A stretch of DNA of 64,000 bases from Octopus sinensis (taxonomy: Eukaryota). This document shows positions 4,613 to 62,770 of this stretch, piece after piece (the first letter of the stretch is position 1; every line of letters starts with the position of its first letter). The stretch lies in contig NC_043020.1 in NCBI RefSeq assembly GCF_006345805.1, positions 20,026,001 through 20,090,000 of the forward strand, given 5' to 3'. Under the pieces are notes generated by a model. The model saw only the letters and a program-made list of their open reading frames with translations. It was not told the origin of the DNA and did not search any database. The translations under genes and the position numbers were made by a program.

Positions 4613-4970
4613 CTGAAATTGCAAGACAGACAAGGGCTGAAACATTGATAAGCAGTAAATGACATGTTCCCACTATTCTATATCATTTACAAACTTGACA
4701 GAGACAAGAAAGGGGAGGGGGCAAAATGTGTAAGAATTTAATTTTTGCTGATGTCAAGCTGATCAATACAGCCACTGAACCACAAATCAGTTATTTTTAC
4801 AGTAAAAAGATAAATTTTGACTGACAGTTTCTATTACCATCTACATCAGCATAATGGTGTGTTTAGTGTTCAGATTACTCTGTTAAATGTAATGCTTTTT
4901 TGCAGTTCTATATTTAAGAGATGAGGAATTATGTACATTATTTACATTTGACCTCATCTTGTTTGTTGTT

Positions 4971-5015
4971 AACACAACGTTTCGGTTGATATACCCTCCA
5001 GCCTTCATCAGGTGG
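4971..5015 (-). ncRNA. Minimal type I hammerhead ribozyme motif (Penelope type)
   Basis: Minus strand reads CCAC-CUGAUGA-A-GGCUG-gagggUAUAU-CAACC-GAAAC-GUU-GUGUU. Core boxes are intact, stem II has one mismatch, and the palindrome AACGUU replaces stem III. Confidence 0.7.
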
Positions 5016-5344
5016 CTTGGAGAAATTTCGAACCTGGGTTCTCATTCCTAAGGTATTTTTCAATGTTATTATTATTATTATTATTCAGGTCACTGCCTGG
5101 AATCGAACTTGGAATCTTGAGGTTAGTAGCCCACGCTCTTAACCACTACGCCATATGCCCGTGGGCTGGTGGCATTATATTCAAGCCAGGTAGTATTAGC
5201 TTTGAGTCTCTACATATGGCGTAGTGGTTAAGAGCACGGACTACTAACCCTAAGATTCCGAGTTCGATTCCAGGCAGTGACCTGAATAATAATAACATCG
5301 AAAAATACCTTAGGAATGAGAACCCAGGTTCAAAATTTCCCCAA

Positions 5345-5390
5345 GACACCTGATGAAGGCTGGAGGATATATCAGCCAAAACTTGTTAAC
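5345..5390 (+). ncRNA. Degenerate hammerhead motif (second arm of the dimer)
   Basis: GACAC-CTGATGA-A-GGCTG-gaggatatat-CAGCC-AAAAC. GAAA is mutated to AAAA and the cleavage segment is partly deleted. Confidence 0.55.
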
Positions 5391-6426
5391 AACAAACAAG
5401 ATAAGGACAAATATCTGTCAAATGTAAAGAATGTAAATAATGTAATGCTTTTTTATTTAAATTGTTTTGAATTAATCATGTATTATCTTATAGCTTTGAG
5501 GTTTCAATGATACAATTGTTTATTTTTAGAATGCCAATGTAGGTTAGGTGTAAGAGGCTAGATATGGCCAGTTTGAATGTAAAATATGTAGAATATTTGG
5601 GCCAGATATGGCTGGTTTAAACACAACATCCATTTTGGTTTGGGTTGTAGAGTTGTGCAATGTGCATCTTTGTACATGTTTCAATTAGAAATCACACCAT
5701 GACTGTAATCCAATATCCTGATCACTTCTTACAAAGCCTTTCTTGGTCTACTTCTACCCCATCCCTTTTTATCATTATCAACTTGCCTTCATTTTATTTT
5801 CATATTATATAAACAAACATGGTCATCTTCTCAGAAGATGTTTGCCAAAGTCTGTCACTTCGAAAAATAACAATAACCAAGAATGAAAGTTTTCTGATCA
5901 ATTCATTTCTTTTATGTTTAGAAATATCATAATTAAAGAAGGCACGCATATGGGTGTTCAGTTAAGAAACTCACTTCCCAACTATGTGGTTTTAAGTTCA
6001 GTCCCACTGTGCAGCACCTTGGGTAAGTGTCTTCTACTATAGCAATAGGTTAACGAAAGCCTTGTGAATAAATGTGGCGGATGGAAACTGAAAGAAGTCC
6101 ATTGTGTGATTGTCTGGGCTTGTTTCCATTTGTGCTCTACAAAAGTTATTGTCATTTCTCCCATCAACAAATTATCTGCTCGCTCAGCAACTACAAAGAT
6201 GTGTGATATGAGAGATCCCTTACATGAAAAACAACCAATGGTTAGCAACAGGAAAAGTATTTGGCAGTAAAACAATACCGGTATGCTAGCATGGAAAATT
6301 CAACATAAAACAAAGATCAGGACAAAGGCTTTGACATTCTGCTGACGGTATTCTAATTCATGCATTTATGTTTGAAGTGTGATGTCATTTAACTACTGAA
6401 TCAAATAGAATGGAATTCTATTTTAC

Positions 6427-6587: not shown

Positions 6588-9162
6588 CTGAAAAAAAAAT
6601 TATTTAATTATTCCATGAATTTATGTAAAGTAGTGTGTGTATGTGTATGTGTGTGATGATGATAAATACACACTTCAAACATTGGAAAGTGAAGAGCATA
6701 CAGTATGTCCAGACTATCAGACTGTTACATATATAATTAACTATTGCATACCTGAATGAGCAGTATGGTCTTCATATGTAGCCATGTGTATCAAGGTTGG
6801 TCATATCCAGTCAATCTGATGATAAATCAAACCAACATGTACCTATTCAATCATGATTGACTTAGGACTAACACAACAACCATCAATCTACTGGATGTGC
6901 ATGTGTGTGTGCATGCGCACCATATAAATATATGACTGGAAGAGGAATGGGTTCTTCCAGTTTTAAAATACTCAAGGTATGTTGTATGTAATGAAAACAC
7001 TACTACAACTGTCAGAAGTTGAGAACCCTCAGGAAAGAGAAAGGGATGTGTGTATCATGTGATTGACCAGACCATTGAATGTTGTTATATATTACTGGTC
7101 CCCATGGACTTTGCATCATTTTAGCTTTCAAATGATGCCATCCTGCTGGCAAGGTGAGCAGGCCAACATTCCTCCAGATGGAGCAACATGAAATGAAGTG
7201 CTTTGTTCAAGAACACAACATGCTGCTCGGTTTGAAAAATCGAACCCACGATCTAGCAATTGTGAGTGCAAGACTTTAACCACTAAGCCACATTCATATA
7301 TATATTTGTTATATGCAACAAAAGTAGTATTAGATTAAAATAGCAAATTTACTGTGGTATTTGCCCAAAGATAATGTTTCTAACGGACTTGCTGTGTTTA
7401 AAAACACAATATATTGGAAGCAGATGAAAATCATCTTAGCAGTGGCTGGTGAGAACACCAGATGCATTTGTGCCTCACGGGTATTGTCAATAGCATGTAC
7501 TTACAGCCAACTGCATGTCTAGGTGAAATTTGTTGTCAGTGATATAGGAAAACAGTAAATAAATAATTACTGATGATGTGAATAGCCACACAGCTGAATA
7601 AAAATCCTTTATACGCAACAGAAGCAGCATTAGATTAAAATAGTCATGAGAAGCAACTCGAATTGTTATAAAATACACGTAACTCCAACCAAATGTGTTG
7701 AGTGCTACTTTATTTGTTCACATGAACATACACATATATACACAAACATATTTTTTTACTCTTAAAAAGTAAATATGAGATATGACATCTACTTAATAGG
7801 GAAATCCAGTCACATATATGATATACCATACAATGCTATGATAAAGAGATACTGGAAAACAGAATGGAATAAATAAGTAACATAGTAATACAAAAATGTA
7901 TTGCAAGGGCAGGAAAGACAAAAAATATTTTTTAAATGCACTGATTGCATTTATTTGTGTACTCAATATTTAATAATGTTTAATCCCCTTAGCTGTAAAG
8001 CTAATGAATTCATCATCATTTTACATCAGTTTCCCATGCTGGAATGAGCTGGCCAGTTCAACAGGAATCAACAGATCAAAAGACTCAGTCTTGTTCCAAT
8101 GTCTCAGTTTTGTTTACATCTACAGCTTGATGCCCTTCCTAACACTAACCACTTTATAGAGTATACTGAATGCATTTTTCATGGTACCAACACAACTGAG
8201 ATTGCAGAACTAAAGGGGCTTCTTGAGCCCTGCATTATTGCAGCTCAATTTGAACTACCAATCATTACTGACTGTATTGGGAGCTTATTTTGCGGTACCA
8301 GCCTTAGTGGAGTTGCTTTGTAGCTAGCAAGGTGAGAGAGACCCACACAATGGATGGGAAAGATTTATTGTTGTGAGAGAATGATAGTGGAGAGAGTAAC
8401 AGAAGGAACAGTGTCCAGAAGGGCAATGTCAGGATTAGTGTGAAGGAGAGGGGACAAAGTGGTAACGAGTAGGTTGAATAGGTGAAGCCTGTGATGGAGT
8501 GTGTCAATCTGCATACTATGCCTACATGGGTTGGAAGGGTCAAGAATTTTCAAACCAGTTCTGAATAAAGTTACATAGGTTTAGTGTTCAGAGAAGATGG
8601 TAGGGGAGAGAGAGTAATAAAGACAGCGTTAGAGAAGGGGGTAGTGAAAGAGAAAGAGAAATGGATGTCATTGGGGTGGGTTATGTGAGAGAGAGAGAGA
8701 GAGTGTTATACAGTGATGGGATGGTAGGAGATGCATTATTCTTGCAGTCAATTAACAGAATCATTACAACACTAAAATGAAATGCTGTGCAACGCTTTGT
8801 TACATTCCTATAAGTTCAAATTTCACCAACATCAACTTTGTCTTCCATTCTTCCAAGAAGTCAATGTAATAAAATGCTGGTTAAAATAAAGTACTAATTA
8901 AGTATAGGGTCAGTTTAATTGAATATAAACATTCCTCAAAATTAAGTTTTTTTTTTCCTTTTTAAAAATCAATATTTCTACATCAATCTACTGTCTTGAA
9001 TCAAATAATTCTGAAAATCTTGACATTTATTCAAGCTACTTTTAAATTTGTGTCTAAATATCCTAATTTACAAAATGAAGAAAAAAGATTGGAAAATAAG
9101 TTACATCCTCTGATGTAATAAAAACAATTGCAAAAAACACATAAGACACACACACATATATA

Positions 9163-61104: not shown

Positions 61105-61430
61105 AGGCCAGAATATAAAGGTGTCATCAACATATCACAGTTTTAGTGGTGTTGATCTTAAAGCCAAATTCTCAAAGTATTCCATGTATATATTTGCTAT
61201 TTTCAGTGATAATGGTGAACCCATAGCTAAACCCTCTTCCGGTCAATATATATCAGTGCCCATTCTGAAGTAGGTAGTTTCTATACAGAAGGTCAACATG
61301 TATACTAGTGCATTCTGTCACCAGTTTTTCTTGAATCACCGATAGTGCTTCATCAGTTGGGACTCTGGTGAACAGACTAGACTCACCATCTGGTTGGATT
61401 AAATGGGGGTATCCTTGATCAATTCTCTGA
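61105..61430 (-). mobile_element. Penelope-like reverse-transcriptase remnant
   Basis: SSLFTRVPTDEALSVIQEKL, then TYFRMGTDIY*PEEGLAMGSPLSLKIANIYMEYFE and YVDDTFIFW. Confidence 0.85.
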
Positions 61431-61439
61431 AGTGGATGG

Positions 61440-62113
61440 AATTTATCTTGTTTGTTGTTAACACAACGTTTCAAATCTAGGTTCTCATTCCTAAGGTATT
61501 TTTCAATGTTGTTATTATTATTATTACTATTCAAAATCAAAATCAAAATCGAAATCGATCAACATCAATGGAAATTGTAGCTGTGATACCAGTGCCGGTG
61601 GCATGTAAGAGAACCAGCCGAACGGTGGCACATAAAAAGCACCATCCAATCGTGGCCGTTTGCCAGCCTCCTCTGGCACCTGTGCCAGTGGCACGTAAAA
61701 AGCACCCACTACACTCATGGAGTGGTTTGGCGTTAGGAAGGACATCCAGCTGTAGAAACACTGCCAGCTCAGACTGGTGCCTGGTGCAGCCTTCTGGCTT
61801 CCCAGACCGTCCAACCGTTGAACCGTCCAACCCATAATGATGATGATGATTCAGGTCACTGCTTTGAAGTGAACTCAGAATCTTGGGGTTAGTAGCCTGT
61901 GCACTTAACCACTACACCATATGCCTGTGGGCAATAAGGGAGTGATTTTTAGAGCTTATAAATCTAATATTTGCCTATCCTTCCTTAATACCAGCACTAG
62001 GTCTGCTTAGGTCTGAAGAAGGCTGGAGAGTATATCAGCCGAAACAAACAAGATGAGGACAAATATCCATCAAATGTAAAAAATGTACATAATTTCTCAT
62101 CTCTCAAATATAG
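61440..62113. mobile_element. Penelope terminal repeat (same family as 4902-5438): a - copy split by an RTE 3' end, plus an inverted + copy with a hammerhead core at 62013-62045
   Basis: GGTTCTCATTCCTAAGGTATTTTTCAATG and the tRNA-like head (61850-61930) match 5036-5165. Core reads CTGAAGA-A-GGCTG...CAGCC-GAAAC. Confidence 0.8.
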
Positions 62114-62149
62114 AGCCATACATGACATTTTGGACTTATTATTATTATT

Positions 62150-62770
62150 ATCCCTATTATTATCACCTTTATCATTATCATCGTCATTATTATTATTATT
62201 GGTATTATTATTATTATTATTATTGAGTGAGAGAGCAGTGCATGCCATCAAAGTGACACTGGGGTAAAATATATGAAGCCCAGTATACCCATCATGACTA
62301 CCCGTCTGATAAGGGTACACCAGGCACATGCATCACAACCATATGTGCGTGATATGGTGATCTCATATCAAGATAAACAGCACATGACCTTGCAGGTGGG
62401 GCCCAGTTAGAATTTTCTTCTGGTCGAGTAACCCATCCCACTCAAAAGGTCTTTGAATAAGGGTTATTTAAGGATGTTGAACGAACCACCCATGTTTCCA
62501 GAGGTGAATTATCCAAACCCCAAAGAATTCCTTTCAACACATGGCTATGATGCTCCCCCACCACTTCTGCTCGTGATCAGAGATGCACATATCGTCAGTC
62601 ACTAAGGAACATGCTCAACTGGTTACGGTCAAACAACTGACAAGCAAATCTGTGGTATTGAGCAGAATATTTGCTGTAGCCCATCTTTTATACCAAGACA
62701 AAACAATGTACATGATAACACTTCCAATCAGTTAAGATCAGAAGCCATGAGAGCCACTGCCTGGCACTGC
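62150..62770 (-). repeat. Interspersed repeat bounded by (TTA)n tracts, possibly a non-LTR 3' end
   Basis: A GC-richer block between (TTA)n arrays; no protein motif recognised. Confidence 0.35.

Follow-up and report, generated by a model that had tools for sequence, protein, structure and literature searches.

What kind of element is the repeat at positions 4902-5438 of the window analysed here (a 64-kb stretch of the Octopus sinensis genome), and which polymerase and reverse transcriptase (RT) would account for its copies? The repeat joins a tRNA-like head to a hammerhead ribozyme, and a first-pass annotation took it for a Pol III-transcribed, self-cleaving, non-autonomous retroelement. Examination of the insertion and of its genomic relatives leads to a different assignment. 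The repeat is almost certainly the pseudo-LTR, comprising the 3′ UTR and ORF start, of a Penelope-like element (PLE) that encodes its own RT and endonuclease.

The interval 4902-5438 is a single insertion, bounded exactly by a 16-bp target duplication (the 16-mer at 4886-4901 is identical to that at 5439-5454). It contains two pseudo-LTR copies of an autonomous-type Penelope/Poseidon element, arranged head-to-head and not in tandem. Copy 1 (4902-5166, minus strand; unit 2-273, 91.6% to the family majority sequence) opens with a 5′ hairpin, includes the head, linker, ORF start and ribozyme, and stops where the tail ends. On this strand, tRNA alignment and the box pattern place the tRNA-like head at 5086-5166, with its 5′ hairpin at 5166-5157, tRNA +1 at 5160, the A-box at 5153-5143 and the B-box at 5110-5099. 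The predicted ORF start codon (5043-5045) is the first ATG to follow the stop codon that lies in frame where the head ends. It is followed by a minimal type I hammerhead (4971-5016), whose core is intact in comparison with the family majority and which is predicted to cut after GUU at 4976. A PLE tail of ~30 bp (4902-4935), of the kind described in PMC11167929, is present at this end of the insertion only.

Copy 2 (5213-5438, plus strand; unit 11-245, 90.8%) has no tail. Its A-box, TGGCGTAGTGG (5217-5227), and B-box, GAGTTCGATTCC (5260-5271), lie exactly where the first-pass annotation put them, and the layout that it described of an (AAT)n linker and a hammerhead is likewise seen. The linker (5285-5296) is a common 5′ truncation point across the family, the start codon predicted from the sequence and the family frame is at 5316-5318, and the hammerhead occupies 5345-5387. 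Within the 64-kb window, a strict A/B-box pattern matches only at the two heads of this insertion. Both hammerheads are damaged: that on the plus strand is broken by a changed G12 and deletion of the GUU site, and that on the minus strand is mispaired once in each of stems I and II. Between the two copies is a 50-bp piece of the N-terminus of the same element's ORF (5166-5215, minus strand; unit 380-429, 96%), which was likely left by a switch of template, to ORF RNA, as the element inserted.

The majority sequence of the family, which is non-viral, was used as its yardstick and is a unit of 2,649 nt (~2.65 kb) in the order tRNA-like head, (AAT)n, ATG, hammerhead, tail, RT, GIY-YIG endonuclease, stop, spacer and next head. 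It holds one frame of 835 codons from the ATG, with a single internal stop at a site of CpG decay. The ATG lies 112 nt past tRNA +1. The frame takes in the ribozyme, which is placed inside the first codons, and terminates 32 nt short of the next head; the tail runs on into the ORF N-terminus. An RVT_1 domain is recognized in the ORF (E=1.5e-9), and eight relatives share 47-65% identity with it. GIY-YIG and CCHH motifs were read by eye in a natural copy (L046) and in the relatives, while a Pfam search of the endonuclease piece gave no match. The linker between RT and endonuclease, also read by eye, is without a zinc finger, and it is by this character that the family is provisionally assigned to the Poseidon clade.

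The association of head and ORF is a general property of the family. Among 29 RT-anchored loci examined, 18 reach the endonuclease end, and 16 of these continue from RT through the endonuclease end, head, linker and ribozyme to the tail. The endonuclease end continues into the head in 26 of 30 endonuclease-anchored loci (two pairs of which are arms of one insertion), and the link was found again in 49 of 60 partly overlapping loci retrieved with outside PLE proteins. ORF end, head, ribozyme and ORF start are colinear in L354, L358 and L363, which is the partial-tandem arrangement of pseudo-LTRs, and some of the first 30 relatives run upstream into coding sequence. Contigs from four other organisms, in which depth does not rank the parts of the element, also carry the family, and three of their pieces bridge endonuclease end and head (runs X15 and X19, from two organisms).

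The copies also have the marks of Penelope-like insertion, namely a tail of ~30-40 bp at one end, inverted 5′ copies and a target duplication. Their 3′ ends form two peaks among 90 copies, with loose ends ~34 nt apart in reads and contigs, and an inverted piece lies upstream in 51 of the 90 ribozyme-anchored loci. Mobilization by a Penelope-type RT, as the first-pass annotation had proposed, is supported, with the difference that the unit is itself part of the RT- and endonuclease-coding element. The family is large: one 21-mer taken from the ribozyme core is found, without mismatch, at 8,778 places in the genome (G000; reversed control, 0), and family pieces were present in 4 of 20 random 10-kb stretches. 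Such counts are inflated, because identical insertions with common flanks, representing segmental duplications or uncollapsed haplotypes, occur at L119, L120, L125, L126 and L337-L340.

A second cluster of the same element is located at 61-62 kb of the window. The Penelope RT remnant previously noticed near 61.1-61.4 kb is genuine and belongs to the same family as the repeat at 4902-5438. It consists of an RT fragment with deletions (61106-61443, minus strand; unit 1359-1753, 80.5%), joined to pseudo-LTR pieces that represent the linker and ORF start and the 3′ part of the ribozyme (61445-61525, minus strand). Endonuclease end with stop, spacer, hairpin and tRNA-like head then follow in native order at 61837-61992 (minus strand), so that the connection of ORF to head is visible inside the window itself, and an inverted piece of ribozyme plus tail occupies 62013-62114 (plus strand). 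Other interspersed repeats are found in or beside this cluster, at 61525-61836 and 62225-62400, and interrupt it between linker pieces.

The hammerhead consensus first read from three copies proved identical, base for base, to the majority of 92 copies chosen without regard to the ribozyme core. This majority is indeed a minimal hammerhead of the PLE type, with the CUGANGA / GAAA / NUH core, an extra base after A9, G10.1-C11.1, stems I and II, and a palindromic stem III; it thereby shows every feature listed for the minimal hammerheads of metazoan PLEs, the extra base and the palindrome included, in PMC4209133. In the hammerhead fold its predicted energy is -11.2 kcal/mol, compared with -12.6 kcal/mol for the minimum free energy structure. 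Individual copies have decayed, with the core retained in 17 of 92 and the whole motif in eight. Compensatory changes in the stems number 3 among 920 cells (92 copies x 10 pairs), in a test of little power because it draws on a single young family in neutral decay. N7, a free position of the core, varies more than any other non-CpG site of 122, a pattern that fits selection acting on master copies; in one other organism, a third base occupies N7 at about half of the contig depth. The predicted cut falls ~70 nt past the ATG, the ribozyme being ~180 nt downstream of the head start, and none of the unstranded RNA-seq reads from a related organism ended at this site. In the Poseidon element of Anolis carolinensis (PAc), cleavage depended on protein, and insertion in vitro did not require it to occur (PMC11167929).

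A pattern search for ribozymes with a GUC site gave 102 matches (control, 15), mostly variants of the same family. Hammerhead-like cores with a different stem II were also encountered at G000:C12:17352547, C10:84260867, C3914:3199 and C3:92601420, and these may mark further ribozyme-bearing families.

The head, judged by its sequence, is tRNA-derived but is not a tRNA. Alignment to ten tRNA genes of the same genome gave z values of 2.6-6.9, the highest being 6.8-6.9, and the best alignments were to Arg-TCT (50/78 columns) and Ala-TGC (46/75). These alignments agree with the tRNA-like head of the first-pass annotation. The boxes remain canonical in sequence and spacing despite loss of the acceptor stem. 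ARAGORN reported 0 tRNA genes in the head, and Rfam models of tRNA and hammerhead gave no match even at E<=5-10. This silence is to be expected, since the ribozyme is minimal and the head has no acceptor stem. The first-pass annotation had itself raised the prospect of a separate SINE head that most copies would lack. On the contrary, the head is present in 26 of 30 ORF-bearing copies, and it was not seen on other bodies, as 30 of 30 head-anchored loci enter an AAT/AAC linker and about 24 of these go on into the ribozyme part. Elsewhere in the genome, one locus (L247, G000:C12:22959503-22962574) is a 3-kb cluster of seven tRNA-Cys genes or pseudogenes, four of them spaced ~156 bp apart.

Copies that extend as far as the head tend to begin at its start. 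Among head-anchored copies, 22 of 30 have their 5′ end there, within ~35 nt; of 90 ribozyme-anchored copies, 38 extend to the head, and 33 of these end in the same interval. Merging of four near-identical duplicates gives 30 of 35, two of the remainder extending upstream with deletions. The 5′ ends are spread over 25-35 nt, at a rate of 2.2 per 100 nt at the head start versus 0.53 and 0.33 upstream (binomial p=2e-9; 4-7x background). Insertions bearing the ORF behave in both ways: among 30 loci examined, three independent ones (L341, L349/352 and L350) start at the head start and three further ones extend beyond it. In the genome, exact-probe counts drop from 2,155 for a probe ending at the hairpin to 462 for one placed 9 nt further upstream, compared with 808 for the endonuclease end and 4,938 for the head, although these probes are of unequal stringency and palindromes are counted twice in the 2,155. 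RNase P-type cutting was considered as an origin of the 5′ ends and was rejected, because no acceptor stem forms and many copies extend past +1, reaching 7 nt upstream of it.

Termination of Pol III transcripts occurs at TTTT, a threshold that may not be that of the host. The sense strand of the 2,649-nt majority unit contains no TTTT, where synonymous shuffling predicts 2.85 (P=0.033) and a third-position model predicts 5.3 (P=0.001), while versus Markov nulls the deficit is not significant (P=0.08 for order 1, 0.24 for order 2). Natural copies have 0.32 TTTT per kb over 83 kb (78 pieces). All 12 control sequences contain the run; they comprise nine other RT families (0.9-6.7 per kb) and three PLE controls, which are a single copy and the yardstick of one second family and one outside copy. 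The second PLE family has 3.3 per kb in its copies and 3 in its yardstick versus 5.1 expected, and so is also below expectation; the outside PLE has 7 in 1,055 nt. Since 5′ ends pile up at the head start and the sense strand is without TTTT, an internal Pol III promoter is suggested, and we lean slightly towards this function for the tRNA-derived head.

The alternative that survives best is an ordinary PLE transcribed by Pol II. The captured tRNA or SINE head would then be a passenger in the UTR, or a Pol II promoter or insulator, and the 5′ ends would reflect stalling or fold-back of the RT at a GC-rich hairpin. We consider this a serious possibility, if a rather improbable one. A 5-bp hairpin does coincide with the head start, at the same spot as the 5′ ends, and a weaker cluster, read by eye as 7 of 90 ends, gathers at a second hairpin of equal stem length. 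However, 73-87% of the copies that reach the head start end there, compared with ~8% at this control hairpin, and a structural block should presumably stop reverse transcription on the 3′ side of the head instead of slightly past the 5′ one. The boxes are no better conserved than the rest of the head, as a passenger would predict: they diverge by 4.9 vs 6.0% in short copies (not significant) and by 6.2 vs 4.3% in ORF-linked copies, the latter being opposite to the expectation for a promoter (p=0.013). Set against this are the canonical form that they keep and the location of the head upstream of the ATG, where a PLE promoter is expected. The T-run deficit is open to both readings, being weak under Markov nulls and partly seen in a control family, yet complete in the majority unit when all 12 controls have some TTTT. 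Inverted 5′ arms are generic for PLEs (10.1101/2021.04.23.441226), and Penelope of Drosophila has a LINE-like internal promoter akin to the Pol II promoters of LINEs (PMC2377424); both fit a Pol II element.

Two further observations count against a Pol III promoter. One is RNA-seq from two unstranded runs of a related organism, which gave no direct sign of Pol III transcription but was uninformative, showing neither a sharp start nor a sharp end, with 66-71% of aligned reads continuing into unrelated sequence. The other is the (AAT)n linker, where ~40 of 90 copies have their 5′ end, short of the head. These copies (within L061-L170) begin exactly at the (AAT)n tract, which is often expanded and has no head upstream. 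Their position is suggestive of an element that targets (AAT)n microsatellites or anneals to them, its own linker included, and that may also seed them.

For the Pol III reading, the observed anatomy and end statistics can be joined into a scheme in which we infer the polymerase, the start site, the fold-back and the cleavage. The head would start Pol III transcription at the hairpin/tRNA +1. The protein of the element would then bind RNAs whose start lies in a short copy or in the downstream pseudo-LTR, and perhaps also the full coding RNA, and would nick AT-rich DNA. Reverse transcription would begin at two internal positions past the ribozyme, which is the situation shown for the Anolis Poseidon. 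From RNAs begun in the downstream pseudo-LTR or a short copy, this process would yield thousands of inserts of 250-275 bp. At the RNA 5′ end, the cDNA might fold back on the small hairpin or switch template, producing head-to-head pairs; in the window insertion, ORF RNA appears to have been the new template. Cleavage by the hammerhead is predicted to require a dimer or help from protein, and the ribozyme may regulate transposition rather than drive it.

It is doubtful whether the coding RNA is a Pol III product as well, and uncapped RNA is hard to translate, which counts against it. Unlikely, too, is the fullest version of the proposal, in which an autonomous coding element swapped its promoter for a captured tRNA gene head, came to be transcribed by Pol III over 2.65 kb with its terminators purged, and, through the same promoter in its downstream repeat, acquired a SINE factory of its own.

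The remaining alternative is that the short units form an independent, non-autonomous SINE or retrozyme lineage, with its own master copies, which parasitizes a Penelope RT, possibly via circular RNA. A model for it exists in schistosomes, where the SM-alpha/Sj-alpha elements are of tRNA origin. SM-alpha is SINE-like and carries a hammerhead (PMC8490949). Short units are ~6x as numerous as ORF-bearing ones (4,938 vs 808 exact 20-mers), and they begin at the head, hence could be transcribed by Pol III. They thus possess the 5′ head with A/B boxes of a tRNA-derived SINE, but a distinct non-autonomous lineage was not found. Comparison of 66 short with 79 ORF-linked heads showed the same majority base everywhere, a common G/A polymorphism and no diagnostic base, with a divergence of 8.0% and 7.0%, respectively, and the head lies within an autonomous element.

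Retrozymes are defined by tandem units (PMC7229834; 10.64898/2026.07.22.740005). In this family, tandems are rare, head-to-tail ribozymes occurring in 3 of 90 ribozyme-anchored loci vs inverted ribozymes in 29. Furthermore, the unit enters the ORF, and copies end ~60-85 nt past the predicted cut, at the PLE tail sites and not at the cut. The short copies are therefore neither a separate SINE nor a retrozyme, having no lineage of their own and rarely being tandem, and the "non-autonomous, retrozyme-like system" of the first-pass annotation gives way to the pseudo-LTR of a coding element. The reading as a separate lineage is largely refuted, and we regard it as very improbable.

Three protein searches of the genome recovered almost only this family (60/60 and 28/30 loci), the other two loci being Neptune-like. 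The latter represent a second, older PLE (L393 and L448-L477; G000:C4:110624077-110627220 and relatives) with a CxxxxCxxC linker, and neither an A/B-box nor a hammerhead pattern is present in its rough majority sequence. Short internal repeats occur in its 3′ region. A metagenome scan gave one locus at 35%, which served as the outside control for T-runs, and a scan of prokaryotes gave none. Separately, small unplaced contigs of the assembly (L398-L427) contain many near-identical RT elements with long ORFs, one family having 26 loci, some 3-4 kb apart as tandem arrays; these have the appearance of very young elements, or they may belong to a different organism included in the assembly.

The hammerheads, tails and inverted arms of PLEs are already known. 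What appears to be new is a tRNA-derived head upstream of the ATG in a coding PLE. No such PLE was found in the full-text literature as far as it was available, including two cephalopod repeat papers (PMC13282606, with supplement, and PMC8967140), the Naiad preprint (10.1101/2021.04.23.441226), the Helenus/Ajax paper (PMC10886601) and the W-element paper. Repbase, Dfam, subscription papers and bioRxiv supplements were outside this scope, so a database entry may exist.

A PLE with a canonical Pol III promoter in its pseudo-LTR would lend itself to simple tests, its start being defined, its boxes open to mutation and its ribozyme ~180 nt downstream of the start; the only PLE promoter study found in the available literature concerns Drosophila Penelope (PMC2377424). 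If its coding RNA were a Pol III product, the element would make a natural mRNA without a cap and combine LINE-like and SINE-like properties, and it would offer one route to PLE-dependent SINEs or tRNA-bearing repeats. In practical terms, the thousands of family fragments resemble tRNA-SINEs and may be misfiled in repeat libraries.

Among known systems, the octopus family is most readily compared with PAc. As described for that element in PMC11167929, it has a single ORF with RT followed by a C-terminal GIY-YIG domain and a linker without a zinc finger. Its pseudo-LTR likewise consists of 3′ UTR and ORF start, with a minimal hammerhead over the first codons, as in PAc and other hammerhead-bearing PLEs (PMC11167929, PMC4209133). 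Two 3′ ends forming a one-sided tail, inverted 5′ arms and AT-rich targets are also shared with PAc, in which the ribozyme overlaps the ORF start, two internal RT start sites produce the tail, and nicking occurs at ATT (PMC11167929). Unlike the Penelope/Poseidon PLEs in the sources available, the octopus family has a tRNA-derived head with A/B boxes before the ATG, 5′ ends that gather there, and no TTTT on the sense strand of its majority unit.

Small ribozyme-bearing repeats provide a second comparison. Schistosoma SM-alpha and Sj-alpha resemble the octopus short unit in joining a SINE-like head to a type I hammerhead, but they are non-coding with an active canonical ribozyme (PMC8490949), whereas in the octopus a coding element gives rise to the short unit as a by-product, with a minimal ribozyme of the PLE type. 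The non-LTR retrozymes of animals are also small hammerhead-bearing units related to PLE pseudo-LTRs, and the portions available of PMC7229834 and 10.64898/2026.07.22.740005 mention no tRNA or Pol III promoter in them. They form head-to-tail tandems that are cut to monomers and circles; in the octopus family, by contrast, tandems are rare and copies end at the PLE tail. With respect to the head, the closest parallel in the available literature is the tRNA-bearing LTR of the non-autonomous element Helenus. Helenus (tRNA) and the other TRIMs, Ajax and Cassandra (5S), similarly have a Pol III-type promoter in a terminal repeat and no functional tRNA (PMC10886601). These, however, are non-autonomous LTR elements, whereas the octopus element is an ORF-coding PLE with a ribozyme.
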